This document shows positions 1-24,292 of a DNA stretch of 64,000 nucleotides, piece after piece; position 1 is the first letter of the stretch; each line of letters opens with the position of its first letter. Source of the stretch: Amphiscolops sp. MND2022 (lineage: Eukaryota); NCBI GenBank assembly GCA_964187785.1, contig OZ076409.1:72046001-72110000 (forward strand), read 5' to 3'. The translations under genes and the position numbers were made by a program. A model generated the notes under the pieces. It made no database searches, was not told the DNA's origin, and saw only the letters and a list, made by a program, of their open reading frames with translations.

Positions 1-407
1 TGGACACTATATGATGTAATGGAGGTCGTGAGGAGAGCATTCGGAAATAACCGTTATGTTGACCCCAAAGTCCCCCTGGTACCGTTAACGACCGGAAATG
101 GCCAAATTTTGTGTCTATTGGGTACAAATGTTTGGTATTTTATGGATAAAAGTACCTGGAAGGTGTTTTAAAGGCCTCCAGAAGTGAACATAGTCATGAA
201 ACCTTGTGGGGGGTAACGGTATATAGCATCGGAAGTCCAAACCGTTGGTCACAGAATAGGTTTTTTGGTTTCAATATGTCTTTAGGCATAGTTTTGTGGG
301 TTGAATCGTCATAATATCAACTAATACGGACTTTTTTCGGAAATAAAATTTTTTCACATTAGTTTCAGGGACCTCCAATGCTTCAGTCAAAATAACCGTT
401 ACATTTT

Positions 408-451
408 GATAGCCTTTCAAGTTGACCTGGTGTCAACTTGGAAGGGCTATC
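408..451 (+). other. Internal bulged hairpin H1 (GATAGCC...CAAGTTG...CAACTTG...GGCTATC); representative of A, AL and BS copies
   Basis: 19-bp stem with one G-T pair, a single bulged base on the 3' arm and a 5-nt loop; conserved between otherwise dissimilar families. Confidence 0.8.
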
Positions 452-792
452 CTTCTAAAATCGTTAATCAACAGTGTTTTTGGGTAGGTATATGTTGCAT
501 TAGTACCAATTAGAGCTTCATCAACAGTTTGCCAACGGCAAAAACGATGTCGTGATAATTCCGTTATAAAAATATTAGTTAACAAATTGTTTTCAAAGTT
601 GATTTTTTCCATTAAAAATGTGTCCTAATGCCACCAAATTGAATAAAATAATAAATGGTATTGACTAAAACTAAATAACAATGAAAAAGAAGATCAACAT
701 TTTTATTAGGTCTCATTATGGAAGCAGAAACCTCACGTTTTAACTTAATTAACGTCAACGCCACATACTTTACATCAACGCCCACCGTCTGT

Positions 793-812
793 GGGCATGC
801 CGAGGCATGCCC
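793..812. promoter_or_regulatory. Conserved 20-bp palindrome GGGCATGCCGAGGCATGCCC (p53-family response-element-like); representative of 24 copies
   Basis: Present once per unit about 45-60 bp before CTAG; matches RRRCWWGYYY x2 with no spacer at 19 of 20 positions. Confidence 0.55.
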
Positions 813-869
813 TTCGACGACGTATACCAAACAACCTCCATATCTACACCCACCCGCGGTAGCAGCTAG

Positions 870-2861
870 GTGCGGGGGGGAAACCCCATCCCTTATCTTG
901 GAGGATTCGGGTAGGGTCCTGAATCCGAGTTCAGTGCCGCCAGCTCTCAGTAGAAATCTGGGCATTTTTTTGCGATCTCGTGATCTAACCATAGGATTTT
1001 AAAGTTGGAGCGGCCCCCACCAGATTTTCCAAAGTTATTCGCCCCCCACCGGGTTCCAGCGTGATTGAAATATTTTGACGGGGTACACGGGCGACCGTTA
1101 GGGGTCATTTTGGGGGTAAAATTTATAAAAGTTCGCATAACTTTTTTCCTGTTGGTTTAAAACTTTAGGACCCTGCTAAAAGTTTCTTGACCATGTTGCA
1201 GGGGCCCCGGAGGTCCAAACCAAATTTTTCTATCTTGAAGCTATCTCCAAGTACCCCCCCGCCCAAACCGTTATTTTTCCGGAAACGCCGGTTTTTGACC
1301 CGGAAGGAGTTGTCTGAGCGCGGGGTCGTTAGGTGATGTTTTGGGGACGGCTTTGAGACGAAGCGGGGGATATATAGTTTGCCGACCCCAGTTCACCCCC
1401 CGCACGGGAAATGACCGTTATATGAGCGGGAAAAATGCCCCCCTCCACGTTTTACCGCTATTTCCGGTGTGAAGGAGTGGGAGTAGCGCGTCGGGTGTTA
1501 TATAACAAAAGTAGGTTTAGACAAGGACCTATCGGAAACATGTAGTTTGGGACCCCCTGGTCCAACCTGTTAGCGGGAAATGGGGCTTCCGCCTCCTTTT
1601 TTTACTGCTAAAACCGTAAAATGGGCATTGAGGGGTAAATATCTCGTGAACGCGTGGAGCAATCGTGTCCATCACTACTACAAGGTTTCATACCCATGAT
1701 ATGGTGCCTTCAGGGGGGCAAACAGATTTCCGCTATCTATCACCGTTACCGACTTGGCCCCCCAGCCTAACCGCTATGTGACCGGAAATGTCACTTTTTG
1801 AGCCCAAAGGGTCGGTCCCAGCCGGGGAACGTTAGGTAACTTATTGTAGTACTCAATGAGACGAGTTGGGGCATATAGTTTCAGTCACCCCCCGTTACCC
1901 CTTGGGACCGGAAATGACCGTTATGTGGGTAAAATTGCCATTTTTGTCCTATTTGGAGGGCATTTAGATGCGGAAGGAGTGGTAATAGGTGCTTGGACAC
2001 TATATGATGTAAAAGAGGACGTGATGCGAGCATTCGAAATTAACCGTTATGTTGACCCCTAAGTCCCCCTGGTACCGTAAATGACCGGAAATGGTCTAAT
2101 TTTGTGTTTATTGGGTACAAATGTTTGGTATTTTATGAATTAAAGTACATGGAAGGTGTTTCAAAGGCCTCCAGAAGTGAACATCGTCATGAAACCTTGT
2201 GGGGGGTAACGGTATATAACACCGGAAGTCCAAACCGTTGGTCACAGAATAGGTTTTTTGGTTTCAAAATGTCTTTAGGCGTAGTTTTATGGGTTGAATC
2301 GTCATAAAATCAACTATTACGAACATTTTTCGGAAAAAAATTTTTTTCACATTAGTTTCAGAGACCTCCAATGCTTCAGTCAACATAACCGTTACATTTT
2401 GATAGCCTTTCAAGTTGGCCTGGCGTCAACTTGGAAGGGCTATCCTTCTAAAATCGTTAATCAAGAGTGTTTTTGGGTAGGTATATGTTGCATTAGTACC
2501 AATTAGAGCTTCATCAACAGTTTGCCAACGGCAAAAACGATGTCGTGATAATTCCGTTAAAAGAATATTAATTAACAAATTGTTTCCAAAGTTGATTTTT
2601 TCCATTCGAAGTGTGTCCTAATGCCACCAAATTGAATAAAATAATAAATGGTATTGACTAAAACTAAATAACATTGAAAAAGAAGCTCAACATTTTTAAT
2701 AGGTCTCATTATGGAAGCTGAAACCTCACGTTTTAACTTAATTAACGTCAACGCCACATACTTTACATCAACGCCCACCGTCTGTGGGCATGCCGAGGCA
2801 TGCCCTTCGACGACGTATACCAATTACATATATATCTACACCCACCCGCGGTAGCAGCTAG
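870..2861 (+). mobile_element. Unit 2, family A, 1992 bp non-coding module
   Basis: Bounded by GCTAGGTG junctions; left hairpin 903-926, H1 2401-2444, palindrome 2786-2805. Confidence 0.75.
903..926 (+). other. Left-end hairpin with TAGGGT loop; representative
   Basis: GGATTCGGG-TAGGGT-CCTGAATCC; equivalent hairpins with different stems follow each junction. Confidence 0.8.
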
Positions 2862-3679
2862 GTGGGCGGGGGTAATTCCCCAACTAAAAAATCGGCCGGC
2901 GGGTAGGGTCCTGCCGGCCGTCCAAAATCAAAAATATACTAGTAGAAAACGGCCGGTCAAACGAGCTATTTTTTTATTTAACCGTTAGAATTTGGGTTTA
3001 GATTGCATGCGGCCATGAAATGGCCATACGAATCGAAGTTCCTGCTGACGTTTTGCGATTGAAACACTTTATAAAAAGTTATGGCCAATTTGTCAGTCAC
3101 CTAGAAGGGCAAAATGAGGAAAATTTTAACAAAGTCGCTGATAACTCAAAATGTGTTATTTTTTGGACTTTGACTGTGAAACAAGCTTGGAACCTTCATT
3201 TCGTGGCTGTGGCATTGCACTGAACGCAAAAGATGTAAAGTTTTTACATTTTTTGAAAATTTGACATTTTTGAAATTTTTTTCACTACTATCAGTACCAT
3301 ATATGTCAAAAACACCTCAGAAAAAAATTTTTATTTGCTTTAACTTGGAAACCTTGGTATCCATGGTTTCTGTCGGAACCTACTCGCAACCAAACAACCA
3401 ACAGTTTGCATCCAATGTGAAAATAAAAAATTTTTCTGGGTCATAAGCGTTTCACAAGGATTTCTCAACTTAGTATTAATTTACAAAATGGTCATTTTGA
3501 ACACAATATTTTCATCGAGGCTTGTCGGCTATAGCCTTAATGTTCTAGAACGGTCCCACTGGCAACGTAGGAACCATTTATAGTAATAGAAAGTTTAAAA
3601 AATATATTTTCACCCTGTCTTCAGTCATTTTTCAGTCATTCGGAACTTAACTTAGAAAAATTTCGACCAAAATACCCAA

Positions 3680-5000
3680 TTTTTGACAGATCGAAAATTC
3701 AAATTCAACTTTTTAAGCAAAATTATTAACTCTGACGTAACCAGTGGGGCTCATGATACTCAAAAACACGATTGGGACTGGTACCAATGGCTCCAATATC
3801 ATATGAGCCGCGATAAGACGTTATTTTGAGCAATACGTCTCAATTGAGGGAAACATCTCGCAAGCCTGGGATCACAGTTAAAAGTGATTTCGTCAAAAAT
3901 TTACTCTTTTTCGTCAATCACTATGTACACAGAGTGCTTAGGGTGAGTTTCAGCACTATTATGCGGTTTTTGAAGGAATCGGTCTGCTCAAGGGGTGGTA
4001 TGAGACATTTTTTTTGCATGTAGTACTATATTTCTCAAAACTTTTAGCCCATTATCTCGAAAAGCTCACTTCGCAAATTACTTTCAGTTACTCTATTCGA
4101 AGCTTAGAATATATATGAACACTGTGGTTGATCAGAAACTCTTGACTATTTTGTTTTTGGAAAAAAACTGCCTTGCATGTGTTACATTAGTGGCAGGAAA
4201 AATACCAGTAGCTCCAAAAATCACAATTTTGGACGGACAGACCTGCAATGATGCAAAGCAAAAACGTTTCAACAACTTCTGGCGCCACTTTTTTTACCCA
4301 AGAGGTTCGAAATTACTATTAACAATGCTGACATTCGCTATAAATAAGATCGAGGTCAATTTACTAACACTTAGGTTATACATTTATATCTGAGAAACCA
4401 TTCTTTGTCAGGTCGCAATTTTAAATTTAGTTTGGGAAGCAATACTTTTCACTCTGAAGCAAACCGTTGGGCCCAAATTACTCAAAAACTACAAAAAGAC
4501 TGTCACCATATGCCCTAATAGCATATGAGATTCGACCGTATGTTTTTAACACAAAAACTCTCATCCGAAGTAAACATGTTGAAGGCCTTGAATCACCGTG
4601 AGAAATGATTTCATCAAAAAATATTCCTTTTTCGTCAATCTTTATTTACACAGAACACGTTGTGTCATTTTCAGCCGTGAAATGAGCTTCTACCGTAATA
4701 TGGGTTGCTCAAGGTGTTGTATAAGACAAAAACTTCCTCTTTTCTACTATCTTCTTCAAATATTTCAACCCTTTGTCACAAGAAGTTAATATTCAAAATC
4801 TCTTTGAAATGTTTCTTTAGGTTGGGGTGAAGTGTTAGAACAATAATTATGATCGAAGAATGATAGTATTGGTGTTTGGACCATGTCCGGATGAACAAAT
4901 TGCAAAATCATGAAAAATTTCTTACCATTTTTGGTCATTTTGTCAGTACTAAAAATGTTAGCTGAAAAAGAATTTTTTGATGGCACCATTGGATTCCTCT
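3680..5000 (+). repeat. Old diverged ~720-bp direct duplication inside BL units (bounds approximate)
   Basis: CTCTGACGTAACCAGTGGGGCTCATGATACTCAAAAAC near 3730 parallels CTCTGAAGCAAACCGTTGGGCCCAAATTACTCAAAAAC near 4452; TGCTCAAGG and other blocks also recur. Confidence 0.7.
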
Positions 5001-5095
5001 CAAAAAGTTAGCTATATGAACTGTGTAATAACCCCGTATCTTTTCAATTTAAATAATTTTAAAAAGCAAACTTTTTTGACTAAAATCCTAAAAAT

Positions 5096-6430
5096 CATAC
5101 CATTTCCTAAAAAATTTCAAATGCCCCCCATTTGACGTATAAGAATAGCACAGAAAACTATCACATACCGATCGACTCTACTTCCATTGTAGATTACCAG
5201 AATTTTGTTTAGAACAATTTTTGACGGATGCAAAAAAAAATTTAAACCCTCCAAAAAAGGGCCAAAATTACACGAAAAAATTGACCTTAAAATTTTAAAA
5301 TGTCGAAAAATCATCAAAACCACAGCTTCTTGGGGTTCTATCAACTCCACGTGGTCCACAGAGTATGTTAAAACAAGTTTTACCCGTATTTGTGCAATAT
5401 GTGAAAAAGCCGACTTTTTTGGGAATGAGAAACATACCATTTCCTAAAAAATTTCAAACGCACCCCATTTGACGTATAAGAATAGCACAGAAAACTATCA
5501 CATACCGATCGACTCTACTTCCATTGTAGGTTACCAGAATCTTGTTTAGAACAATTGTTGACGGATGCAAAAAAAAATTAAACCCTCCAAAAATGGGCCA
5601 AAATTACACGAAAAAATTGACCTTAAATTTTTAAAATGTCAAAAAATCATCAAAACCACAGCTTCTTGGGGTTCTATCAACTCCACGTGGTCCACAGAGT
5701 TTGCTAAAACAGGTTTTACCTGTTTCTGAGCTATATGTGAAAAAACCGACATTTTGGGGAAGAAAAACATACCATTTCCTAAAAAATTTCAAATGCACGC
5801 CATTTGCCGTATGAGAATAGCACAGAAAACTATCACATACCGATCAACTCTACTTCTATTGTAGATTATCAGATTTTTGTTTAGAACAAATTTTTATGGA
5901 TATAAAAAATTTTTAAACCCTCCAAAAATGAGCCAAAATAACACGAAAAAATGGACCCTAAATTTTTAAAATGTCAAAAAATTATCCAAACCACAGCTTC
6001 TTGGGGTTCTATCAGCTCCACGTGGTCCACAGAGTATGCTAAAACAGGTTTTGCCCGTTTTTGAGCAGTATATGAAAAAGCCGACATTTTTGGGGAAGAA
6101 AAACATACCATTTCCTAAATAATTTCAAATGCAGGCAATTTGCCGTATGAGAGTAGCACAGAAAACTATCACACACCGATCAACTCTACTTCTTTTGTAG
6201 ATTATCAGAATTATGTTTAGAGTAAAGTTTTATGGATATGAAAAATTTTTATACCCTCCAAAAATGGGCCAAAATGACACAAAAAAATTGACCTCAAATT
6301 TTTAAAATGTCAAAAAATTATCCAAACCACAGCGTCTTGGCGTTCTATCAACTCCAAATGACCTTCAGAGTATACCAAACCAGGTATTGCCAATCTTTTG
6401 AGCAATATTTAAAAACACCGACTATTTGGC
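5096..6430 (+). repeat. About 4 tandem copies of a ~336-bp repeat in unit 3 (end approximate)
   Basis: CATACCATTTCCTAA at 5096, 5433, 5768, 6104. Confidence 0.9.
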
Positions 6431-6657
6431 AAGAACACCATAATATGTTCCATATAAGAAGTGAATCATTCCACATATATACCCGGTCTAATATTTCCAA
6501 ATTAGCGATAACATTTATACATGATGGTTTTTGAAAGTGAGCTTCATAAGAGGTTGAGATGTAATAATACGTAAATGGACCCTAAGTTTCATTGAAATCT
6601 CAATGGAATACGTCCAATCAACTTCAATCCTAACTATTATATAACAAAAAACACTTG

Positions 6658-6698
6658 AGTACATTCCATCTCCCCATCGGGGGAGATGAGAATGTACT
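6658..6698 (+). other. Internal bulged hairpin H2 (AGTACATTCCATCTCCCC-ATCG-GGGGAGATGAGAATGTACT); representative of BL and D copies
   Basis: 9 bp + bulged A on the 3' arm + 9 bp + 4-nt loop; nearly invariant in diverged BL subtypes and in unit 15. Confidence 0.8.
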
Positions 6699-7623
6699 TT
6701 TCAAAAGCCAAAAACTTCGAATTTTAAATCTTTTGTAACATTGTATGTAACTGTTGAAACGATGAACGAATAAAAATGCTTCTAGTACCTTCATCAATTT
6801 TTGCTTCAGCTCCTATTTCTGCAGAACAAAACCAAAAGACACACTTACAGCAGTTAAGTTCGATTGTATAACTCAGTGAATAAAGGTATGACTGAGGAAG
6901 TTCACAAGTTGTTTCAAAAGTTTCCGGCCTTCCAAAATCATGAAACGTCCACACAACCAAGATAGCAAGTGAAAGAATGCTGAATGCACCTTATTAGATG
7001 AGATAAATAATGTGTGGAACTTGCCATTATCTCAAGATGACGTTGATTTATGATCTTTTAAGGATAGTTCGATATGTGACCACAATAGTGGAAAACCTAT
7101 TACTATTTGAAGAACACCGTGGAAAGCGTTCAGAAAGGACAGTATATTTGTTTCGAGCATGCATGCGTGTGTTCCTTTGGTGACGTTAGCTTAGTGTACA
7201 TGACGGAGGTATTCGAGAGAATATGATAGAGTTTACTCACAAGTCTTTGTTTTGTTAAACTTTCTATGCCGTTGAGTACATTCGTAAGGTACATCCATCC
7301 CCTTCTCTGGGAATGTACGTTTGCCAAATGACTGTCATCCAAAATTCGTAATCCGGACGAGTTTAACTACATAAACATGTGATGAGCGTTTTCAATTCAC
7401 AACCGAATAACATTTTTTTCTCGAAAATGATGATGGTTTTGATTTTGATGTCTTCTACTTTTATCATCATGCAAACGACCTTACCATGTCTCTCTTCTGT
7501 CGTCATTTGTACAACGCCACATACCGTTCCGACGCCCACCGTCTGTGGGCATGCCGAGGCATGCCCTTCGACGACGTATGCCAAATGAGCCATACCCGCA
7601 CTCTGGAGTGCGGTAGCGGCTAG

Positions 7624-9617
7624 GTGGGCGGTAGGTTTCCCGTAGTCAAAAAAAATTGCAGGCCGGGGTAGGGGCCCTGGCCGAGGCAAAATACCATAGA
7701 AAAGGTACCAAATTATGTGAGTTTAGAAAATTGAGCCATACAAATTCTCTGAAAATTGCTGTGTGTACCCTATCGCCCAATCTAAGAACTTTTTCCTGCT
7801 GACGTTTTGCTCTCCAAATGTTACTAATATGACTTTTTGAAAAATTTATCTCTGGTTTTTCATCAAAAATAGTGATTTTGGCAATTTTTGTGAAATATCT
7901 CTGATTGCATTAATTTTTGGACGTTGACTGTGAAACAAGGTCGGAACCATCATTTCGTGACCATGGCAATGCACTAAACACAAAAGATGTAGAGTTTTTA
8001 AATTTTTTGAAAATTTGACATTTTTGAATTTTTTTCACTACTATCAGTACCATATATGTCAAAATAACCTCAGAAAATTTTTTTTTATTTTATTTAATTT
8101 AGAATCCTTGCTATCCATGGTTTCTGTTAGTATCTACTCGCTGCCAGAGACTCAACAGTTAGCATCGAATCTGAAATTAAAAATTTTTTCGAGGTCATAG
8201 GTGTTTCACAAGGATTTCACAACATAGTCTTGTTTTACAAATAGGTCATTTACAACATCATATTTTCATCGAGGCATGTCGGATATAGTCTTATTGCTCA
8301 CGAACGGTCCTACTGGCAACGTAATAACCATTTATAGAAATATAAAGTTTTTAAAAAATCTTTTCACCCGTTCTTCAGACATTTTTCAGACATTCGGAAC
8401 TTAACTTAGAAAAATTTCGTCTCTAAAACCCATTTTTCGTCAGGTCGAAATTTGAAATTCAGCTTTTGAAGCACAAATATGCACTCTGACGTAACCAGTA
8501 GGGCCAATGATACTCAACAACACCATTGAGACTGGTATCAGTCGCTCCAAAAACATATGAGCCGTGATAAGACGTTTTTTTCAACAATACTGTTCAATTG
8601 ATGTAAACATTGCGGAAGCCTTGGATTACAGTGAAAGTTGATTTGAACAAAAATTTACTCTTTTTTGTCAATCACTATGTAGACAGAATGCGTAGGGTAA
8701 GTTTCAGCACTAATATGAAGATTTTGAAGGAATCGGGTTGCTCAAGGCGTGGTATGAGACACTTTTTTCTCATATACTAGTGTTTTTCAAAACCTTTTCG
8801 TTAAATATCTCGAAAAGCAAACATTAAAAAATACTTTCTGATATCTAATTTAATTCCTAGAATATAAATGAATCATGTGGTTGATCAGAAACTCTCTACT
8901 TTAATGTTTCCAGAAAAAAATCCCTTCCCATGTTTTATATCTGTAGCAGTAAAAAAAGTAGACGCTAAAAAATACGCTATTTTGCTAAGATTGAATTGCA
9001 ATTGTTTAGCTTTAAAACTCTTTTAATACTTCTAACGCCACCTTAAGGACTCAAGATGATTGAAAATGTCAATCACAATGCTGACATGTAGTCTTTCTAC
9101 GATCCTGGCTGGACAGATTTTGATTATTTTTCAAGTACCTGTTAACTGAATCTCGTGATAGCCTTCTAAGTTGACCTTCTGCGTCAACTTGAGAAGGCTA
9201 TCACTAAAATAAACTAAATTCTGATTTGTTTGTTTGTTCCTAACGTCTTTTGGTACGATCGTCTTACGGTTAGTTGGTTAAACCAGGTCGCTTATACTTC
9301 CACAATTTTCGACCACCGTCCGTGTATTCGGTTCACACGACTTTACATTTTCAGTCGTTTGTTTTCGATAACTTTCACAATGTACTGCCATTAGCGCAAA
9401 ATTCATACTAGTACTTGGTTGGTTGAAATACTTAAACAACTGTTTCCATAGTTATTCGCGGTGATGGTACAATCCGCGCGCCTACATACATACGGCGTCT
9501 TGTCACTACAACGCCACATAGGGAAACAACGCCCATAGTCCGTAGGCATGCCGAGGCATGCCTTTCGACGACGCGCGCCAAATCTATGCGCGCCCGCACT
9601 TGTGCGGTAGCTGCTAG
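7624..9617 (+). mobile_element. Unit 4, family BS (divergent), 1994 bp
   Basis: Bounded by GCTAGGTG; body homologous to the left part of BL; H1 at 9155-9204. Confidence 0.72.
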
Positions 9618-12415
9618 GTGGCGGGGGGCTGTCCCCAATAGAATATAGTGAGGTAGGGTAGGGTTCCCTACCGAACATTCAGTACTGAAAGACTCTTGTA
9701 GTATGAAAATTTTTCGATGTTTTGAGACCGATTTCGGATTCCACCCGTCAGAAGTTTATGATTTTTTGGCCCCCACCCAGATTTTGGGCACTGATCGCCC
9801 CCCACCAGGTTCCATACCCGTGGTTTCGTTGTGACGGGTACACGAGCGACCGTTAGGGGTCAATCAGGGGGTAAAATTTATAAAAGTGTGAATAACTTTT
9901 CCCCCCGTCGTTTTAGCAGGTCCGGTCACTAGTAAAGGTTTGTTGGGCATCATGCAGTGGGTACGGGGGGCCAAACAAAAATTTTCTATCATGCACCGTT
10001 ACGGACTTGGCCCCCCGCCCAAACCGCTATTTTACCGGAAATTGCACTTTTTGAACGGGAAGGAGTCGTCTGAGCGCGGAGTCGTTTGGTAATGTTTTGT
10101 AGAGCATCTGAAGACGTGGTGGGGGACATGTAGTTTGCCGACCCCAGTTTACCCCTCGGACGGGAAATGACCGTTATGTTAGTTTTAAAATTGCCCCCCG
10201 TCAACTTTAACCGCTATTTCTGGTGTGAAGGAGTCGGAACAGCGTGTCGGGTGCTATATATCAAAAGTAGCTTTAAACAAGGACCTATCAGAAACATGTG
10301 GTTTGGGACCCTTTGAACGGACCCGTTAGCCGGAAATAGGGTGACCGCCTCCTTTTTTTGGTGTTAAAACCGTAAAACGGGCATTAAAGTGAAATTATCT
10401 CGTGAACGCGTGGAGCAATCGTGTCCATCACTCCTACAAGGTTTCATACCCATGACATGGTGTCTTCAGGGGGGCAAACAGATCAGCGCTATCTATCACC
10501 GTTACGGACTTTGCCCCCCAGCCTAACCGCTATATTACCGGAAACTGCCCTTTTTGACCGGGAAGGAGTCGTCTGAGAGTGGAGTCGTTAAGTAATGTTT
10601 TGTAGAGCATCTAGAGACGTGTTGGGGGACATGTAGTTTGCCGACCCCTGTTTACCCCTCGGACGGGAAATGACCGTTATGTTAGTTTTAAAATTGCCCC
10701 CCGTCAACTTTAACCGCTATTTCTGGTGTGAAGGAGTCGGAATAGCGTGTCGGGTGCTACATATCAAAAGTAGCTTTAAACAAGGACCTATCAGAAACAT
10801 GTGGTTTGGGACCCTTGGAACGGACCCGTTAGCCGGAAATAGGGTGACCGCCCCCTTTTTCTGCGGTTAAAATTGTAAAACGGGCATTGAAGTGGAATTA
10901 TCTTGGAAACGCGTGGAGCTATAGTGTCCTTCACTACTACAAGGTTTCATACTCAAGATACGGTGCCTTCAGGGGGGAAAACAGATTACCGCTATATATC
11001 ACCGTTACGGACTTGGCCCCCCAGCCTAACCGCTATGTTACCGGAAATGTCATTTTTTGAGCCAAAAGGGTTAGTCCCAGCGTGGGAACGTCAGGTAACT
11101 TTATGTAGAACTCAATGAGACGAGTTGGAGGATATGGTTTCAGTCACCCCCCGTTGACCCGTTAGACCGGAAACGACCGTTATGTAGTGAAAAATGTAAT
11201 TTTTATACTTTTTGAAGGCCATTTAGGGCAGGAAGTATCGGTAATATGTCTTTGGACAGTATACAATGAAAGTTTTGGTGTGAAACAAGCAATCTGAAAT
11301 ATCCGTTATTATGATTCGGAAGTCACACTAACAGCGAAAATGACCGTTATGTAGTGAAAATTTTTTTCACATTTTTTTTGCTTTCGATAGGTCCTTCAAG
11401 CCAAGAAGTAGCTGTATTAGGTCTTTGGCCACTTTATGATGATTGTGGTGTTGTGAGATGACCGTACGAACTTGACCTTTATAATGCCCCTGAGTTGCTG
11501 CGGCACGAGAAATTTCAGAAAGTTTGTCTTTTCTGTGTTTTGTTGGAATAAACATTTAATTTCATTAAACCAATGTGCATTCAGGGTGTTTAGAAAGCTT
11601 CAAGAAAAGAATTTAATAGGAAACATGGCGGTGAGAAATAACAAATTGCCACGTAAATCCAACCCCCGTTGGGGAATAAATGTAATAAATTGTTTTGGAA
11701 GTGCCAATCGACGTGTATTTGCGGATCATAGCCACGGTATTGTCTATTCGTGTTTCTTTTTGAAGACTTTGAACATTTTCACTTTATCAGCTTGAGGTTT
11801 TAACTCTATATGCTTAATAACCGTTACAATATGATAGCCCTCAAGTTGACCTTGTGTCAACTTGAAAGGGCTATCCTTTCACAACTGCGCAGCAACAGTG
11901 TGATTGAGTGATTTAGTTATTATCCAAGGCCAATTTGAACTTCAACAAGATTTTAACCACAATATTTAAAACTATTCATATGATTCTTTCAAAAGGGTAA
12001 ATATTTAACTAATATTTGACAAAAAAACTCCAACCTTTAATTTGTGGACCGAATAGTAGGAAAACCATGTTTCTTAACGTTGTTGGATGAAATTCAAAAT
12101 GATGCTTTTAAAAGAATAACAATTCTTGACACTATATATTTTTTCTATTTTCCAATAAACTATTTTTCCAAAAGTCTATTTTTCCAATAAACATTGTTGA
12201 TTGATGCCCATTCATAGTGACTGGAAAGTTTTACCAACTGTGGTGTTTTTTTTTAATCAGAGGTGAAACCGCTCCCTACCGTCGCATAATGTAATTCAAG
12301 CCGACGCCCACATGCCAACATCAACGCCCACCGTCCGTAGGCATGCCGAGGCATGCCTTTCGACAACGTATGCCAAATCACGCCCCTGCGAGGTCACTAA
12401 AGCGGTAGCGGCTAG
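9618..12415 (+). mobile_element. Unit 5, family AL, 2798 bp
   Basis: Bounded by GCTAGGTG; A-related body with 503-bp internal repeats; H1 at 11833-11875; sister of unit 18. Confidence 0.72.
9995..11350 (+). repeat. 503-bp internal repeat, about 2.7 copies, in unit 5 (end approximate)
   Basis: ACCGTTACGGACTT at 9995, 10498, 11001. Confidence 0.85.
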
Positions 12416-14409
12416 GTGCGGGGGGGTAACCCCAACAAATATATTGGAGGATTCGGGTAGGGTCCTGAATCCGATTTTAACTCTAATAGCTATCGATAGG
12501 AAATCTTGCAAAAATTTCGGGATCTCGTGATCTAACCATAGGATTTTAAAGTTGGAGCGGCCCCCACCAGATTTTCCAAAGTTATTCGCCCCCCACCGGG
12601 TTCCATACCCCGGAAAATTTTTTTCTGGCCACACGGGCGACCGTTAGGGGGTCATTTTAGGGGTAAAATTCATATTGGGCCACATAACTTTTTTTCTGTT
12701 GATTTAAAACTTTGGAACCCTGCTAAAAGTTTCTTGACCGTGTTGCAGGGGCCCCGAAGGTCCAAACCAAATTTTTCTATCTTGAAGCTATCTCCAAGTA
12801 CCCCCCCGCTCAAACCGTTATTTTTCCGGAAACGCAGGTTTTTGACCCGGAAGGAGTCGTCTGAGCGCGGGGTCGTTAGGTGATGTATTGGGGACGGCCT
12901 TGAGACGAAGTGGGGGACAAGTAGTTTGCCAACCTCAATTTACCCCCCGGACGGGAAATGACCGTTACATGAGCGTGAAAAATGCCCCCCTCCACGTTTT
13001 ACCGCTATTTCCGGTGTGAAGGAGTGGGAGTAGCGCGTCGGGTGTTATATAACAAAAGTAGGTTTAGACAAGGACCTATCGAAAACATGTAGTTTGGGAC
13101 CCCCTGGACCAACCCGTTAGCGAGAAATGGGGCTTCCGCCTCCTTTTTTTACTGCTAAAACCGTAAAATGGGCATTGAGGGGTAAATATCTCGTGAACGC
13201 GTGGAGCAATCGTGTCCATCACTACTACAAGGTTTCATACCCATGATATGGTGCCTTCAGGGGGGCAAACAGATTTCCGCTATCTATCACCGTTACCGAC
13301 TTGGCCCCCCAGCCTAACCGCTATGTGACCGGAAATGTCACTTTTTGAGCCCAAAGGGTCGGTCCCAGACGGGGAACGTTAGGTAACTTATTGTAGTACT
13401 CAATGAGACGAGTTGGGGGATATAGTTTCAGTCACCCCCCGTTACCCCTTGGGACCGGAAATGACCGTTATGTGGGTAAATTTGCAATTTTTATACTTTT
13501 TCAAGTGTATTTAGGTGCGGAAGGAGTGGTAATAGGTGCTTGGACACTATATGAGGTAAGGGAGGACGTGAGGCGAGCATTCGGAAATAACCGTTATGTT
13601 GACCCTAAAGTCCCCCTGGTACCGTAAACGACCGGAAATGGTCAAATTTTGTGTTTTTAGGGTACAAATGATTAGAATTTTATAGAAAAAAGTACCTGGT
13701 CGGTGTTTCAACGGCTTGCAGTAGTGAACATAGTCATGAAACCTTGTGGGGGGTAACGGTATATAGCACCGGAAGTCCAAACCGTTGGAGACAGGATAGG
13801 TATTTTGGTTTTAAAATGCCTATAAGCGTACTTTTGTGGGTTGAATCGTTTCAATATCGACTAATTTGGATATTTTTTTGACATTGAAGGTTTTTTCAAT
13901 AGTTTCAGGGACCTCAAATGCTTCAATCAATATAACCGTTACCTTATGATAGCCTTTCAAGTTGGCCTGGTGTCAACTTGGAAGGGCTATCCTTCGAAAA
14001 TCGTAATTCAAGTGTGTTTTTGAGTACGTTTTTATTACTTTAATATCAATTAGAGCTCAATCATTAGTTTGCCAACGACAAAAACTATGACGTGATGATA
14101 CCGTTAGTAGAAGAATAGTTAACAATTTGTTGACAAAATTGATTTTTTGCATTTTAAATGTTTCCTAAATGCCAGGAAAACAATTTATCTAATGAATGGT
14201 ACTGATTGAACCCAAGTATCATTTGAAAAAAAGTTAAACATTGTTTTTTCGTTTCATTATGGAAGCTGAAACCTCACGTTTTAGGTCACTTAACGTCAAC
14301 GCCACATACTTTACATCAACGTCCGCCGTCTGTGGGCATGCCGAGGCATGCCCTTCGACGACGTATACCAATTACATATATATCTACACCCACCCGCGGT
14401 AGCAGCTAG
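12416..14409 (+). mobile_element. Unit 6, family A, 1994 bp
   Basis: Bounded by GCTAGGTG; homologous to unit 2. Confidence 0.75.
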
Positions 14410-16380
14410 GTGCGGGGGGGTAACCCCAACAAAAATTTTGGAGGATTCGGGTAGGGTCCTGAATCCGATTTCAACTCTAATAGCTATCGATAGGAAATCT
14501 TGCAAAAATTTCGGGATCTCGTGATCTAACCATAGGATTTTAAAGTTGGAGCGGCCCCCACCAGATTTTCCGAAAATTAGCGCCCCCCACCGGGTTCCAT
14601 ACCCCGGAAAATTTTTTTCTGGCCACACGGGCGACCGTTAGGGGGTCATTTTAGGGGTAAAATTCATATTGGGCCACATAACTTTTTTTCTGTTGATTTA
14701 AAACTTTGGAACCCTGCTAAAAGTTTCTTGACCGTGTTGCAAGGGCTCCGGAGGTCCAAACCAAATTTTTCTATCTTGAAGCTATCTCCAAGTACCCCCC
14801 CGCTCAAACCGTTATTTTTCCGGAAACGCAGGTTTTTGACCCGGAAGGAGTCGTCTGAGCGCGGGGTCGTTAGGTGATGTTTTGGGGACGGCCTTGAGAC
14901 GAAGTGGGGGACATGTAGTTTGCCAACCTCAGTTTACCCCCCGGACGAGAAATGACCGTTATATGAGCGGGAAAATTGCCCCCCTCCACGTTTAACCGCT
15001 ATTTCCGGTGTGAAGGAGTGGGAGTAGCGCGTCGGGTGCCATATATCAAAAGTAGGTTTAGACAAGGATCTATCGGAAACATGTGGTTTGGGACCCCCTG
15101 GACCAACCCGTTAGCAGGAAATGGGGCTTCCGTCCCGTTTTTTTACGGTTAAAAACGGAAAATGGGCATTGAGGGGTAAATATCTCGTGAACGCGTGGAG
15201 CTACGGTGTCCTTCACTACTACAAGGTTTCATACCCATGATATGGTGCCTTCAGGGGGGCAAACAGATTTCCGCTATCTATCACCGTTACGGACTTGGCC
15301 CCCCAGCCTAACCGCTAAGTGACCGGAAATGTCACTTTTTGAGCCCAAAGGGTCGGTCCCAGCCAGGGAACGTTAGGTAACTTATTGTAGTACTCATTGA
15401 GATGAGTTGGGGGACATAGTTTCAGTCACCCCCCGTTACCCCTTAAGACCGGAAATGACCGTTATGTGAGTAAATTTGCCGTTTTTGTCCTATTTGAAGG
15501 GCATTTAGATGCGGAAGGAGTGGTAATAGGTGCTTGGACACTATATGAGGTAAGGGAGGATATGAGGCGAGCATTCGGAAATAACCGTTATGTTGACCCC
15601 AAAGTCCCCCTGGTACCGTAAACGACCCGAAATGGTCAAATTTTGTGTCTATTGGGTACAAATGTTTGGTATTTTGTAGATAAAATTATCTATTAGGTGT
15701 TTCGACGGTCTGCAGTAGTGAACATAGTCATGAAACCTTGTGGGGGGTAACGGTATATAGCACCGGAAGTCCAAACCGTTGGAGACAGGATAGGTTTTTT
15801 GGTTTTAAAATGTCTTTCGGCGTACTTTTGTCGACTATTAAGGACTACTTTTAAAAATTAAAGTTTTTCCATATAGTTTTAGAGACTCCGAAACCTCAAC
15901 CAACATAACCGTTACCTCATGATAGCCTTTCAAGTTGGCCTGGTGTCAACTTGGAAGGGCTATCCTTCAAAAATCGTCAATCAAGTGTGTTTTTTGGTAT
16001 GTTTGTATCATTTTAGAATCAAATAGAGCTTCAAGAAAAGTTTGCCAACGACAAAAACTATGTCGTGATGATTCCGTTATTAGAATAATAGTTAGCAAAT
16101 TGTTGAGAAAATTGATTTTTTCCATATCAAATGTGTCCTAATTGCCAGGAATCCTATTTAACTAACAAATGGTATTGATTGGAATGTATGTAACAGAGTT
16201 ATGAAAGTTCAAATTGATTATTACGTTTCATTATGGAAGCTGAAACGTAATATTTTAGTTTAATTAACGTCAACGCCACACACTTTACATCAACGCCCAC
16301 CGTCTGTGGGCATGCCGAGGCATGCCCTTCGACGACGTATGGCAAATCCCTTCTAACGACGCCCGTACATCCCGGGCTAG
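14410..16380 (+). mobile_element. Unit 7, family A, 1971 bp
   Basis: Bounded by GCTAGGTG; homologous to unit 2. Confidence 0.75.
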
Positions 16381-18345
16381 GTGCGGGGGGGAAACCCCAT
16401 CCCTTTTCTTGGAGGATTCGGGTAGGGTCCTGAATCCGAGTTCAGTGCCGCCAGCTCTCAGTAGAAATCTGGGCATTTTTTTGCGATCTCGTGATCTAAC
16501 CATAGGATTTTAAAGTTGGAGCGGCCCCCACCAGATTTTCCAAAGTTATTCGCCCCCCACCGGGTTCCAGCGTGATTGAAATATTTTGTCGGGGTACACG
16601 GGCGACCGTTAGGGGTCATTTTGGGGGTAAAATTTATATCCGGTCGCATAACTTTTTTCCTGTTGGTTTAAAACTTTGGGACCCTGCTAAAAGTTTCTTG
16701 ACCTTGTTGCAGTGGCTCCGGAGGTCCAAACCAAATTTTTCTATCTTCAAGCTATCTCCAAGTACCCCCCCGCCCAAACCGTTATTTTTCCGGAAACGCA
16801 GGTTTTTGACCCGGAAGGAGTCGTCTGAGCGCGGGGTCGTTAGGTGATGTATTGGGGACGGCCTTGAGACGAAGCGGGGGACATGTAGTTTGCCGACCCC
16901 AGTTTACCCCCCGGACGGGAAATGACCGTTATTTGAGCGGGAAAAATGCCCCCCTCCACGTTTTACCGCTATTTCCGGTGTGAAGGAGTGGGAGTAGCGC
17001 GTCGGGTGCCATATATCAAAAGTAGGTTTAGACAAGGACCAACCGGAAACATGTGGTTTGGGACCCCCTGACCCAACCCGTTAGCCGTTATAAGAGTGAT
17101 CGCCTCCTTTTTTTACACTCAAAACCGGAAAACGGGTATTGAGGGGTAAATATCTCGTGAACGCGTGGAGCAATCGTGTCCATCACTACTACAAGGTTTC
17201 ATACCCATGATATGGTGCCTTCAGGGGGGCAAACAGATTACCGCTATCTATCACCGTTACGGACTTGGCCCCCCAGCCCAACCGCTATGTGACCGGAAAT
17301 GTCACTTTTTGAGCCCAAAGGGTCGGTCCCAGCCTGGGAACGTTAGGTAACTTATTGTAGTACTCATTGATACGAGTTGGGGGATATAGTTTCAGTCACC
17401 CCCCGTTACCCCTTAGGACCGGAAATGACCGTTATGTGAGTGAAATTGCAATTTTTATACTTTTTGAAAGGCATTTAGGTGCAGAAGGAGTGGTAATAGG
17501 TGCTTGGACACTATATAATGATAAGGAGGACGTGAGGCGAGCATTCGAAAAAAACCGTTATGTTGACCCCAAAGTCCCCCTGGTACCGTAAATGACCGGA
17601 AATGGTCAAATTTTGTGTTTAAAGGGTACAAATGTTTGGTGTTTTATGGATAACAGTACCTATTAGGTGTTTCGACGGTATACAGTTGTGAACATAGTCA
17701 TGAAACCTTGTGGGGGGTAACGGTATATAGCACCGGAAGTCCAAAACGTTGGAGACAGGATAAGTTTTTTGGTTTTAAAACGTCTTTCGGCCTACTTTTG
17801 TCGACTATTATGGTCTATTTTTGAAAAATAAAATTTTTCCATATAGTTTCAGAGACTCCGAAACCTCAACCAACATAACCGTTACCTTATGATAGCCTTT
17901 CAAGTTGGCCTGGTGTCAACTTGGAAGGGCTATCCTTCAAAAATCATTAATCAAGTGTGTTTTTGAGTATGTTTGTATTACTTTAGAATCAATTAGAGCT
18001 TCAAGAAAAGTTTGCCAACGACAAAAACTATGTCGTGATGATTCCGTTATTGTTAACAAAGTTTTAAAAACGTTGATTTTTTTCATTTCAAATGTGTCCT
18101 AAATGCCAGAAAACCTCTTTACCAAACAAATGGTATTGATTGAATTGTATATAACAGCTAATAAAAGTTCAAACTGAATATTACGTTTCATTTTGTAAGC
18201 TGAAACGTCATTTTATAGTTTCATTAACGTCAACGCCACATACTTTACATCAACGCCCACCGTCCGTAGGCATGCCGAGGCATGCCTTTCGACGACGTAT
18301 ACCAAATTCCTTTAACACAACACCCCCGAGCGCGTTAGCAGCTAG
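16381..18345 (+). mobile_element. Unit 8, family A, 1965 bp
   Basis: Bounded by GCTAGGTG; homologous to unit 2. Confidence 0.75.
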
Positions 18346-20320
18346 GTGCGGGGGGGTAACCCCAACAAAATTTTTGGAGGATTCGGGTAGGGTCCTGAAT
18401 CCGAGTTCAGTGCTGCCAGCTTTCGTTAAGAAAATTTGGATAGGATTCGGGATCTCGTGATCTAACCATAGGATTTTAAAGTTGGAGCGGCCCCCACCAG
18501 ATTTTCCGAAAATTAGCGCCCCCCACCGGGTTCCATACCCCGGAAAATTTTTTTCTGGCCACACGGGCGACCGTTAGGGGGTCATTTTAGGGGTAAAATT
18601 CATATTGGGCCACATAACTTTTTTTCTGTTGATTTAAAACTTTGGGACCCTGCTAAAAGTTTCTTGACCGTGTTGCAGGGGCCCCGGAGGTCCAAACCAA
18701 ATTTTTCTAGCTTGAAGCTATCTCCAAGTACCCCCCCGCCCAAAACGTTATTTTTCCGGAAACGCAGGTTTTTGACCCGGAAGGAGTCGTCTGAGCGCGG
18801 GGTCGTTAGGTGATGTTTTGGGGACGGCCTTGAGACGAAGTGGGGGACATGTAGTTTGCCGACCCCAGTTTACCCCCCGGACGGGAAATGACCGTTATAT
18901 GAGCGGGAAAAATGCCCCCTTCCACGTTTTACCCCTATTTCCGGTGTGAAGGAGTGGGAGTAGCGCGTCGGGTGCCATATATCAAAAGTAGGTTCAGACA
19001 AGGACCTATCGGAAACATGTAGTTTGGGACCCCCTGGACCAACCCGTTAGCGAGAAATGGGGCTTCCGGCCCGTTTTTTTACGGTTAAAAACGGAAAATG
19101 TGCATTGAGGGGTAAATATCTCGTGAACGCGTGGAGCTACGGTGTCCATCACTACTACAAAGTTTCATACCCATGATATGGTGCCTTCAGGGGGGCAAAC
19201 AGATTTCCGCTATCTATCACCGTTACGGACTTGGCCCCCCAGCCTAACCGCTATGTGACCGGAAATGTCACTTTTTGAGCCCAAAGGGTCGGTCTCAGCC
19301 AGGGAACGTTAGGTAACTTATTGTAGTACTCATTGAGACGAGTTGGGGGATACAGTTTCAGTCACCCCCCGTTACCCCTTGGGACCGGAAATGACCGTTA
19401 TGTGGGTAAATTTGCTTTTTTTGTACTTTTTGGAGGGCATTTAGGTGCGGAAGGAGTGGTAATAGGTGCTTGGACACTATATGATGATAGGGAGGACGTG
19501 AGGCGAGCTTTCGGAATTAACCGTTATGCTGACCCTAAAGTCCCCCTGGTACCGGAAGTGACCCGTAATGGTCAAATTTTGTGTTTAAAGGGTACAAATG
19601 TTTGGTGTTTTTTGGATAACAGTACCTATTAGGTGTTTCGACGGTCTGCAGTCGTGAACATAGTCATGAAACCTTGTGGGGGGTAACGGTATATAGCACC
19701 GGAAGTCCAAACCGTTGGAGACAGGATAAGTTTTTTGGTTTTAAAATGTCTTTCGGCCTACTTTTGTTGACTATTATGGACTATTTTTGAAAAATAAATT
19801 TTTTCCAAATAGTTTCAGAGACTCCGAAACCTCAACCAACATAACCGTTACCTTATGATAGCCTTTCAAGTTGGCCTGGTGTCAACTTGGAAGGGCTATC
19901 CTTCAAAAATCATTAATCAAGTGTGTTTTTGAGTATGTTTGTATTACTTTAGAATCAATTAGAGCTTCAGGAAAAGTTTGCCAACGATAAAAACTATGTC
20001 GTGATGATTCCGTTATTAGAATAATAGTTAACAAAAAATTGATAAAGTTGATTTTTTAAACTTTAAATGTGTTCTAAATGCCAGAAAACCTCTTTACCAA
20101 ACAAATGGAATTGATTGAATTGTATATAACAGCTAATAAAACTTCAAATTGAATATTAGGTTTCATTATGGAAGCTGAAATGTCATATTATAGTTTCAAT
20201 AATGTCAACGCCACATACTTTACATCAACGCCCACCGTCTGTGGGCATGCCGAGGCATGCCCTTCGACGACGTATACCAAATTCCTCCAACACAACACCC
20301 CCGAGCGCGGTAGCAGCTAG
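18346..20320 (+). mobile_element. Unit 9, family A, 1975 bp
   Basis: Bounded by GCTAGGTG; homologous to unit 2. Confidence 0.75.
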
Positions 20321-22309
20321 GTGGGCGGGGGTAATTCCCCAACAAAAAAATCGGCCGGCGGGTCGGGTCCTGCCGGCCGTCCAAAATCAAAATCCTCCTA
20401 GTAGAAAACGGCATGTCAAACGAGCTATTTTTTTATTTAACCATACGAATCTCACCATTTTTTGCATGCGGCCCTGAAATGGCCATACGAGACGAAGTTC
20501 CTGCTGACGTTTTGCAATGTAAATGTTTTATAAAAAGTTATGGCCGATTTGTCATTCACCTAGAAGGGTAAAATGAGGAAAATTTTAACAAAGTCGCTGA
20601 TAACTCAAAATGTGTTAATTTTTGGACTTTGACTGTGAAACAAGATTGGAACCTTCATTTCGTGGCTGGGGCATTGGACTGAACACAAAAGATGTAAAGT
20701 TTTTACGTTTTTTGAAAATTCGACATTTTTGAAATTTTTTTCACTACTATCAGTACCCCATATGTCAAAAACACCTCAGAAAAAAATTTTTATTTGCTTT
20801 AAATTGGAAACCTTGGTATCCATGGTTTCTGTCGGAACCTACTCGCAGCCAAACACCCAACAGTTTGCATCCAATGTGAAAATAAAAAATTTTTCGGGGT
20901 CATAAGCGTTTCACAAGGATTTCTCAACTTAGTATTAATTTACAAAATGGTCATTTTGAACATAATATTTTCATCGAGGCTTGTCGGCTATAGCCTTAAT
21001 GTTCTAGAACGGTCCCACTGGCAACGTAGCAACCATTTATAGTAATATAAAAGGTTAAAAAATTTTTTTCACCCGGTCTTCAGTCATTTTTCAGACATTC
21101 GGAACATAACTTAGAAAATTTTTGACCCAAATACCCATTTTTTGTCAGGTCGAAAATTAAAATTCAGCTATTAAAGCAAAATTATTTACTCTGACGTAAC
21201 CAGTGGGGCCCATGATACTCAAAAACACCATTGGCACTGGTACCAATGGCTCCATTAACATATGAGTCGCGATAAGACGTTATTTTGAGCAATACGTCTC
21301 AATTGAGGTAAAGATCTCGCAAGCCAGCGATCACTGTGAAATGTGATTTCATCAAAAATTTACTCATTTTTGTCAATAACTATGTGCACAGAGTGTGTAG
21401 GGTGCGTTTCAGCACTATAATGAGGTTTTTGAAGGCATCGGGTTGCTCAAGGGGTGGTATGAGACATTTTTTTCCTATATACTACTGTGTTTTCCAAAAC
21501 TTTTAGCCCATTATCAGGAAAAAATAATTTGACAAATTACTTTCAACTACTTTATTCAAAGGTTACAATATAGATGAACACTGTGGTTGATCAGAAACTT
21601 TCATCTCTTTCGTTTTCCGAAATAATTCCCTTCGAATGTGTTACATTTGTAGCCGGAAAAAAAACCGAAACTAAAAAATACGCGATTTTGCTGAGATAGA
21701 ACCGGGATAATTGTGTCTAAATACTCTTTAAATACTTCTAACGCGACCTTACGGACCCAAAAGGATTAAAAATGCCACTCACAATGCTGACATGTGCTCT
21801 TTCGACGATCCTGGCTGGACAAGTTTTGCAAATATTTCAAGTACCTGTTAACTGAATTTTGTGATAGCCTTTTAAGTTGGCCTTGTGTCAACTTGGGAAG
21901 GCTATCACATCAAAAAACTTTCAACAAAAAAACTTTTTGTTTATTGGATATTGCTGTCGATACCTTTTTTAGTGATTCTATACTACCGTTAGTATATTCC
22001 ATCAGGTCACCAGACGATTGTATTCAGTATTTGATAAAAATATATGAACTCGAAGTCTCTTTCATATGTTTTTTGTTCAAAAAAATTATCAAAAAAATTT
22101 ATATTATAAACAATTGAGTCTTTAACTTTTTTATTCCCCAATTTTCCAGTGTTATTAGGCTCATCAACTTCCTACTGCCACATCCAGACATTAGTACAAC
22201 GCCACAAAGTGTTGCGACGTCCACCGTCTGTGGGCATGCCGAGGCATGCCCTTCGACGACGTATGCCAAAAATAGCGCCCTCCGCGGTCACTACCGCGGT
22301 AGCAGCTAG
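20321..22309 (+). mobile_element. Unit 10, family BS, 1989 bp
   Basis: Bounded by GCTAGGTG; H1 at about 21860-21909. Confidence 0.75.
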
Positions 22310-24292
22310 GTGGGCGGGGGTAATTCCCCTTCAAAAAATTCGGCCGGCGGGTTGGGTCCTGCCGGACGTCAAATAGTGTGAAACATCCAGTAGGAAACGG
22401 CGACATAAATCAGCGATTTTAAAATTTAACCGTTAGAATTCGGACTTGGAGTGCATGCGGCCCCAAAATGCCCATACGAATCGAAGTTCCTGCTGACGTT
22501 AAGCGATAAAAACACTTTATAAAAAGTTATGGCCCATTTTACGTTCACTTAGAGAGGTAAAATGAGGAAAATTTTAACAAAGTTGCTGATAACTCAAAAT
22601 ACATTAATTTTTGGACTTTGACTGTGAAACAAGCTTGGAACCTTCATTTCGTGGCTGTGGCATTGCACTGAACACAAAAGATGTAAAGTTTTCACATTTT
22701 TTGAAAATTCGACATTTTTGATTTTTTTTTCACTACTATCAGTACACTATATGTCAAAAACACCTCTGAAAAAATTTTTATTTGCTCAAATTTAGAAACC
22801 TCGGTATCCATGGTTTCCGTCAGTACCTACTCGCTGCAAAACGCTCAACAGTTTGCATCCAATGTGAAAATAAAATTTTTTTGGAGGCCTTAGGTGTTTC
22901 ACAAGGATTTCTCAACTTAGTATCAATTTACAAATTGGTCATTTTGAACACATTATTTCCATCGAAGCTTGTCGGCTATAGCCTTAATGTTCTAGAACGG
23001 TCTCACTGGCAACGTAGGAACCATTTATAGTAATAGAAAGTTTTAAAAAAAATTTTTCACCCGGTCTTCAGTCATTTTTCAGTCATTCGGAACTTAACTT
23101 AGAAAAATTTCGACCAAAATACCCATTTTTTGTCAGGTCGAAAAATCAAATTCAGCTTTTTAAGCAAAATTATTAACTCTGACGTAACCCATGGGGCCCA
23201 TGATACTCAAAACAACGATTGACACTGGTATCAGTGGCTCCAATAACATTTGAGTCGCGATAAGACGTTACTTTGAGCAATACGTCTCAATTGAGGTAAA
23301 GATCTCGCAAGCCAGCGATCACTGTGAAATGTGATTTCATCAAAAATTTACTCATTTTTGTCAATCACTATGTGCACAGAATGCGTAGGGTGCGTTTCAG
23401 CACTATAATGAGGTTTTTGAATGCATCGAGTTGCTCAAGGGGTGGTATGAGACATTTTTGTCCCATATACTACTGTATTTTCCAATATTTTTAGCCCAAT
23501 ATCTGGAAATACAAACTAGACAAAATACTTTCAACTACTTTATTCAAAGGTTACAATATAGATGAACACTGTGGTTGATCAGAAACTTTCATCTCTTTCG
23601 TTTTCCGAAATATTTCCCTTCGCATGTGTTACATTTGTAGCAGAAAAAAAATTCGAAACTGAAAAATACGCTATTTTGCTAATATAGAATCGCAATGATT
23701 GTGTCTAAAAACTCTTTAAACACTTCTAACGCAACCTTACGCACCCAAAATGATCAAAACTGCTATTCACAATGGTGACATGTGCTCTTTCAACGATCCT
23801 GACTGAACAATTTTCGCAAATTATTCAAGTACCTGTTAACTGAATCTCGTGATAGCCTTTTCAGTTGGCCTTGTGTCAACTTGGGAAGGCTATCACATCA
23901 AAAAATTTTCAACAAAATTTTTTTTTGTTCATTGGAAATGACAGTCGATATATAATTTCGTGATTCTATACTACCGTTAGTACCTTCCATTAAGTCACCT
24001 GACGATTGCATTCAGTCTTTGATAAATACCTATGAACTCGAATTCATATTTATTAATTTTGTGCTAAAAATAAACATCAAAATTATCCAAATTATTCAAA
24101 ATTGAGTCTTTACCGTTTTTGTTTTTCTTTTTCTACTGTTATTAGGCCCATCAACTTCCTACAGCCACGCTCTCTGTCATTAGTACAACGCCACATAGTG
24201 TTGCGACGTGCACAGTCTGTGGGCATGCCGAGGCATGCCCTTCGACGACGTATGCCGAATACCGCGGGCCTACGCCCGCGCTCCCCGGCTAG
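22310..24292 (+). mobile_element. Unit 11, family BS, 1983 bp
   Basis: Bounded by GCTAGGTG; homologous to unit 10. Confidence 0.75.

Follow-up and report, generated by a model that had tools for sequence, protein, structure and literature searches.

We describe a head-to-tail array of gene-less units, each of which carries, at a fixed place near its end, one copy of a 20-mer that matches the binding site of p53-family proteins nearly perfectly. Judged from its sequence, the 20-mer may be a p53/p63/p73-type tetramer site that is built into a subterminal element also read by the transposition machinery, and that is kept by selection because the elements need it; we regard this reading as evenly balanced between right and wrong.

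A mixed array of ORF-less units

The window (the whole stretch of 64 kb analysed here, positions 1..64000 of the plus strand) consists throughout of a single head-to-tail array. Cutting at the junction core GCTAGGTG delimits 22 complete and 2 partial units, and neither an array flank nor a coding region was seen within the 64 kb. The units lack ORFs and are 1.3-4.8 kb long. Their interiors are of three unrelated kinds (A/C, B and D) that have only the ends and some short palindromes in common, and the 24 units, partial ones included, fall into families A (7 units), B-short (8), B-long (6), C (2) and D (1). Type copies and other features are collected in Table 1. Between copies the interiors differ by 5-20%, while the inner 18-mer of the 20-mer motif is unchanged.

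The order of families along the array is near random, with same-family neighbours in 9/23 cases (P=0.06). Several copies that are 98-99% identical have different neighbours: those at 2862-7623, 41036-45799 and 59286-64000, and likewise the pair at 24293-29054 and 45800-50559. In all of these near-identical copies, identity breaks within the 8-nt junction core. The occurrence of near-identical copies between different neighbours points to recent unit-length mobility within the array, and from this anatomy we therefore take the units to be non-autonomous mobile modules, precisely joined at a short core.

Matching sequence was found in two further sources. Metagenome contig L001 (1172 bp) spans a junction, with the end of a further family on one side of it and the beginning of a second unit on the other. 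From sequencing run X1, 25 contigs matched positions 880-5080, covering 24 of 30 bins and mostly less than 90% alike; a loose end at 2846 among them corresponds to a different right-end type. These contigs showed no solitary-insertion flank and no motif variant among the 6 of 15 loose ends viewed.

Table 1. Positions of array features in the window, with type copies and occurrence
Feature	Position	Strand	Occurrence and remarks
Family A complete unit, ~2.0 kb	870..2861	+	6 complete and 1 partial copy
Family B-long complete unit, ~4.76 kb	2862..7623	+	5 complete and 1 partial copy; tandem array at 5091-6442
Family B-short complete unit, ~2.0 kb	7624..9617	+	8 copies; first 1.2-1.5 kb common with B-long
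Family C complete unit, ~2.8 kb	9618..12415	+	2 copies; interior related to A
Family D unit, 1276 bp	33004..34279	+	single unit; interior unrelated to A, B and C except for ends and P2
Junction core GCTAGGTG	865..872	+	23 copies on plus strand, 0 on minus; unit identity switches inside
Left-end hairpin	903..926	+	conserved GGGT.GGG core, covarying stem; structure-only control
Internal bulged palindrome P1	408..451		once in each unit of families A, B-short and C; 17/24 units
Internal bulged palindrome P2	6659..6697		once in each B-long and D unit; 7/24 units; also L001:567-605
336-bp tandem array, 3.8-4 copies	5091-6442, 26524-27790, 43267-44617, 48029-49295, 52789-54047, 61516-62859		every B-long unit
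Upstream CAACGCC box, 7-mer	756..762	+	common to 22/22 complete units
Conserved subterminal block, ~55 bp	776..830		positions -17 to +38 around the 20-mer
p53-family-like 20-mer, G..C form	793..812		reference copy
20-mer, G..C form, other copies	starts 2786, 7547, 14334, 16308, 20243, 22232, 24221, 28977, 30967, 32930, 36189, 38173, 45723, 50482, 55230, 57221, 59208, 63972
20-mer, A..T variant	9544..9563		also starts 12339, 18268, 34206, 40959 (copies 4, 5, 8, 15 and 18 with the first); L001:812-831
GC-rich terminal hairpin, variable, example	7596..7613	+	resembles Helitron 3' terminator

Internal features of the units

Every unit contains exactly one of two bulged palindromes, P1 or P2, which are mutually unrelated, 39-47 nt long and placed 190-860 bp before the 20-mer. 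Each is common to families whose flanks diverge at once, and mostly it bears an extra base on its 3' arm. An origin, a resolution site or a small-RNA hairpin would all be guesses at their role.

The A/C interiors (870-2861 and 9618-12415) are composed of old degenerate repeats, spaced at ~150-175 bp, that preferentially retain the words ACCGTTA and CCGGAAR, which we take to be MYB-like and ETS-like respectively; B and D interiors are without them. One family A unit has 8 ETS-like words against 0.9 expected and 12 MYB-like words against 3.0, and across internal repeats that are 62-70% identical such words were kept in 8/11 cases compared to 107/832 for all 6-mers, as counted in four alignments, two of them homologous. 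ETS is not known outside animals. The CpG observed/expected ratio is 0.97, without excess CpG decay, and together with the ETS-like words it gives weak hints of an invertebrate host.

The most invariant long motif

The 20-mer is made of two GGCATGCC palindromes at a 10-bp period, and can be written equally as a 9-bp inverted repeat around a central GA. It occurs once per unit, in 19 copies of a G..C form and 5 of an A..T form (named for the outermost bases). The preliminary description had placed it in all 24 units, and its assignments hold, both for the G..C copies that it listed (793, 2786, 7547 and 63972) and for all five of the A..T variant. A scan for two copies of RRRCWWGYYY with at most 2 mismatches gave 27 matches in the window, where shuffled sequence leads one to expect 1.58. 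Of these matches 24 are copies of the 20-mer, each with the same single mismatch, a G at position 10. These 24 copies are one homologous element, so that their number shows conservation and not 24 independent matches.

That this is the most invariant long motif of the array, as had been claimed, is borne out by shared words: those of at least 9 nt that are common to 22/22 complete units all lie inside the inner 18-mer (the 8-nt junction word is cut by the way that units are defined, and hence is not countable). It had also been placed next to the junction, and near it certainly is, but the motif starts 66-79 bp upstream of the point where unit identity switches, which leaves 46-59 bp between motif and switch.

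To follow variation we used 21 distinct haplotypes, drawn from 23 window copies and L001, with the copy cut by the window end excluded. The inner 18-mer is invariant over all 21, on a right-end tree with a total length of 2.5 substitutions per site. Only positions 1 and 20 vary; both are changed in 6/6 variant haplotypes, and one-sided forms are absent (0/21). By parsimony this outer pair changed at least 3 times on the tree, one of the changes being at 18268, and the double change itself may have had a single origin. At the sister right ends 18268 and 20243, the outer pair and position -3 differ together, with A..T linked to C at -3, which suggests short-tract gene conversion between families at 18268. 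The joint change of both outer bases had earlier been offered as keeping symmetry and consensus alike. Both sides do always change, but this is not independent support for p53: it is neutral in that respect, and fits pairing or conversion equally well or better.

Quality of the p53 match

Affinities were predicted with a measured matrix for human p53 (Table 2 of PMC2275157). Predicted logKd is -7.45 for the G..C form (19 copies) and -7.35 for the A..T form (5 copies), where the same matrix gives -7.61 for its optimum, -7.46 for p53R2 and -7.11 for p21, and where the next best 20-mer within the 64-kb window reaches -6.54. In all 24 copies the half-sites have C4 and G7 intact, CATG cores, no spacer and 19/20 consensus positions. 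The match had been called near-perfect on its consensus, and the matrix scores uphold this beyond what a consensus count can show. A separate, weak p53-like match (predicted logKd -6.53) is present in three copies of one 336-bp tandem unit.

The chance of such a score was obtained by exact enumeration over GC contents of 0.38-0.75. A random 20-mer would reach it with a chance of 2e-10 to 1e-8. Given a 9-bp hairpin around a 2-nt centre the chance rises to 5e-6 to 5e-5, and given a pair of identical 8-bp palindromes with a 10-bp period to 7e-4 to 5e-3, all figures being uncorrected for the comparison of several conserved palindromes with many known motifs.

Specificity of the p53 family is conserved across animals (PMC2807882, PMC5031199). 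When held against the relaxed strings in Table 1 of PMC2807882, both forms of the 20-mer have 0 mismatches to those of zebrafish p53, mouse p53 and dNp63a, 1 mismatch to those of human and frog, and 2 per half-site to that of Drosophila p53. The variable positions 1 and 20 rank among those that p53 reads least; other low-cost positions (2, 9-12 and 19) are invariant too, including the non-consensus G10 and the central GA.

The conserved block and its folding

Conservation extends over a subterminal block of ~55 bp around the 20-mer, with invariant flanks GTC.GT and TTCGAC and repeated C(A/G)ACG boxes. The block allows an extended imperfect hairpin to form, more readily on the minus strand, where flank pairing with G-T wobbles is 82% compatible, versus 20-51% when slid and 54% on the plus strand. 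RNAalifold places the outer stem in another register. In the outer part of the block, one-sided changes between G-U and Watson-Crick pairing occur at 7/12 pairs when the minus strand is read, a figure lowered by an assumed structure that took in one mostly unpaired position (columns 6-51), and one-sided changes are weakened as evidence of pairing by the A-C positions, at which any transition makes a pair. In the stem of the 20-mer 8/9 pairs never vary (16 distinct of 19 rows).

The hairpin at the left ends of the units served for comparison. In a sample of 10 of the 23 window left ends, picked as distinct, plus L001, double changes were found in 5/9 pairs, with 87% of positions paired versus 30-59% when slid. 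This hairpin lies ~45-55 nt from the switch point, is mostly preceded by a mini-hairpin of a G-run and a C-run, and looks like a site of the nick or bind type. Unlike this covarying hairpin the 20-mer stem is frozen, which argues that its sequence is read, and not its pairing alone. On the other hand, positions neutral for p53 are invariant along with the flanks, and to explain these one must invoke either strong homogenisation or a second constraint.

The p53 interpretation of the preliminary description thus survives in part. A hairpin-only null makes the score improbable and the stem does not vary, but p53 accounts for only part of the conservation, the central GA and the flanks of the ~55-bp block being invariant though p53-neutral. 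The alternative raised there, a site for the element's own enzyme, is probably also true in part. The two readings, p53 site and hairpin, can coexist, and p53 has been described to bind preferentially to sites that form cruciforms (PMC5343910).

Junctions and unit ends

If the junction core is cut after its CTAG, 22/22 complete units end in CTAG and start with GTG. The junction of L001 is GCGAGGTG, with CGAG at the corresponding end, which weakens CTAG as an absolute terminus. A perfect GC-rich hairpin lies 10-12 nt before the unit end in 13/22 complete units; in 3 it is found elsewhere, and 6 have none. The longest terminal or subterminal inverted repeats are 5-8 nt when exact and 7-11 nt with one mismatch, versus 7-13 nt in interior controls, and for want of terminal inverted repeats above control a cut-and-paste DDE transposon or MITE was rejected. 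A core of 5-8 nt is common to both sides of each junction; the flanks of the array being unseen, a direct repeat and a target site would look alike here.

Searches for genes, RNAs and partners

No reading frame in the window exceeds 159 codons, and 45 chosen stop-to-stop frames, 36 taken from a list of 49 together with 9 others, gave 0 Pfam matches above cut-off. Five matches below it were treated as noise, the best noted being in a minus frame at 39998-40402, within family C (22.9 bits, for a cut-off of 25). No Rfam family came near its gathering score in positions 1-13000 and 29000-36400 (20.4 of the 64 kb) or in L001, and a search of the sequence for tRNAs found none. A hammerhead ribozyme was discarded as a candidate: beside the 20-mer there is no CUGANGA...GAAA core with stems I-III, nor is there an Rfam match in the stretches scanned. 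A look-alike of the hammerhead core in B interiors, ~750 bp from the left end on the minus strand in 12/14 B units, was likewise put aside, being without flanking stems by eye.

Patterns for the block, the 18-mer, P2 and P1 had 0 matches in viral contigs, and element patterns had 0 in prokaryote genomes and plasmids; in metagenomes the element pattern had 1 match, L001. Another 35 loci that matched a left-end pattern were dismissed as chance, all of them being without the 20-mer and without similarity to the units. No autonomous partner (RepHel, Rep or tyrosine recombinase) was found in the window or in the viral, prokaryote, plasmid or metagenome collections.

Comparison with known elements

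Sites for p53 are known in L1, Alu, ERV LTRs and zebrafish EnSpm-N6_DR (PMC3485254, PMC5031199), and when borne by transposable elements they can drive host genes (PMC3485254). EnSpm-N6_DR resembles the units described here in being non-autonomous and in having a full two-half-site p53 element in every copy (PMC3485254). It differs in that its sites occur in a single family, the related EnSpm-N families being without them, and that they exceed the remainder of the element little in conservation (93% versus 90%; PMC3485254). In the array units, the site is the most invariant sequence, has a fixed subterminal place, and is common to unrelated interiors.

Helitrons of the HLE1 (Helraiser) class share with our units the absence of terminal inverted repeats, left and right ends that differ from each other, head-to-tail junctions, internal tandem repeats and, in 13/22 units, a GC-rich hairpin 10-12 nt before a terminal CTAG, where HLE1 has CTRR (PMC5876387, PMC11417382). 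The array units nevertheless start with GTG and not with TC (22/22), their junctions show no A/T target, L001 has CGAG, and HLE1 arrays, as these sources present them, repeat one element where the present array mixes families (PMC5876387, PMC11417382). HLE2 or Helentron elements (HINE, DINE-1) likewise lack ORFs and have a palindrome at the 3' end and tandem repeats in the centre, whereas the 12-16 bp terminal or subterminal inverted repeats described for them (PMC4067079) do not occur above control in our units, nor is there a TT target or a terminal T-run, the junction being GCTAGGTG in 23/23. By these features, read at internal junctions with the true flanks unseen, the units belong to neither HLE1 nor HLE2, despite their Helitron-like 3' end.

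IS91, IS200-IS605 and Replitrons insert in a specific orientation at a short target, and have subterminal hairpins and a short core common to both ends (PMC10288648), all in likeness to the array, in which however no Rep gene and no fuzzy ends were seen. Replitrons have been reported from plants, algae and protists (PMC10288648), a host range that would not fit a p53-bearing host. Our literature search brought up no element with such ends, and Repbase or Dfam may still contain one. Crypton circles and the attC cassette arrays of integrons combine mixed cassettes, a short invariant core and bulged palindromes. Differences from them are that no recombinase was seen, that the core begins with GTG and not GTT, and that the cassettes are ORF-less and 1.3-4.8 kb long; by analogy, this tyrosine-recombinase likeness may serve as a lead only.

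Discussion

From end anatomy, on which the assignment to the HUH group rests, we favour an enzyme of the HUH/rolling-circle type whose target is the element's own junction; a tyrosine recombinase would be the other candidate. Such a transposase, acting in trans, would cut and join at the GC(T)AGGTG core, with its machinery reading the 55-bp block and the hairpins. The target being restored at every junction, unit-length circles could then form and insert anew into other junctions. The p53 family might enter at a further, most speculative step. In invertebrates p53 is described as mainly germline and activated by breaks (PMC5031199). Double-strand breaks in the germline would activate host p53/p63, which, bound ~50 bp inside the junction, would open or mark that junction as donor and target and so couple mobilisation and array growth to break signalling. 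The elements would then form a self-targeting group, so far undescribed, with an obligatory p53-family site, at whose junctions germline-break-activated p53/p63 licenses or tethers the transposase, while elements stack into mixed arrays. We offer this full scheme tentatively, and think it doubtful as a whole.

As the main rival, the block would be recognised by nothing but a protein of the element itself, be it as a single-stranded DNA hairpin or as a dimer-of-dimers site, the p53 match then being coincidental. HUH enzymes do recognise subterminal hairpins (PMC10288648, PMC5876387), further conserved hairpins exist in every unit, and an extended minus-strand stem with G-T wobbles is possible; conservation over ~55 bp that includes invariant non-p53 flanks and centre, and an outer pair always altered on both sides, would be natural outcomes. 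We nevertheless place this explanation on the unlikely side, if well short of negligible, for a hairpin would attain such a score with a chance of 5e-6 to 5e-5 and a double palindrome with one of at most 5e-3, self-palindromic arms are unnecessary for a hairpin, the outer stem is not unique (the RNAalifold register), and the double change affects one pair only. If the protein were itself of p53 type and encoded by the autonomous element, as a captured DNA-binding domain or a convergent tetramer, with host p53 a bystander or competitor, a single complex would account for the invariance of the flanks as well as for a core that is optimal for p53, and Helitron-like elements are able to capture domains (PMC11417382). 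The collections searched yielded no autonomous partner from which such a protein might come. An element-encoded p53-type protein is not known, and a literature search gave no precedent for one; we hold this variant to be quite improbable.

Two other explanations do without a p53-guided mobility. The array may be a sink or enhancer bank for p53 at the level of the host, or its uniformity may be satellite-like homogenisation by gene conversion, with no role in mobility. There are, after all, 24 near-optimal predicted sites in 64 kb, sites borne by transposable elements are able to drive host genes (PMC3485254), and the copy at 18268 has A..T and C at -3 though its nearest right-end relative is G..C, as a conversion tract would leave. 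Against both speak one site per unit at a fixed place in the ends, across unrelated interiors and in L001, interiors that have diverged by 5-20% when the 18-mer has not, and units shuffled as precise modules, and a sink has no use for invariant flanks; we judge this to be improbable. A structured RNA, such as a ribozyme or a protein-binding hairpin on the minus-strand transcript of a retro-type element, seems very improbable indeed. The one-sided G-U/Watson-Crick changes at 7/12 outer pairs of the minus strand are what it would predict, but transitions at A-C positions always pair and so make these changes weak evidence; moreover, P1 favours the plus strand in most variants, no Rfam family came near cut-off (20.4 of 64 kb and L001), no complete hammerhead was present, and unit boundaries are precise, without poly-A or truncation.

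To return to a p53-family site kept by the elements, p53 sites in transposons may be accidents later used by the host, brakes imposed by it, or features selected by the element. When one site varies less than anything else in several gene-less families with unrelated interiors, and always lies at the same distance range from the end, this is how a feature that the element requires would be expected to look. In comparison with known p53 sites in transposable elements, the present one differs in that no other sequence of these several families is as invariant, in its fixed position, and in a type of array that belongs to neither Helitron class. A mixed, precisely joined array with GTG starts fits neither of those classes, and it may depend on a transposase of a kind not yet described. 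If the reading is true, p53, the guardian of the genome, would be used as a cofactor of transposition, and such arrays would be dense banks of near-optimal p53 sites.
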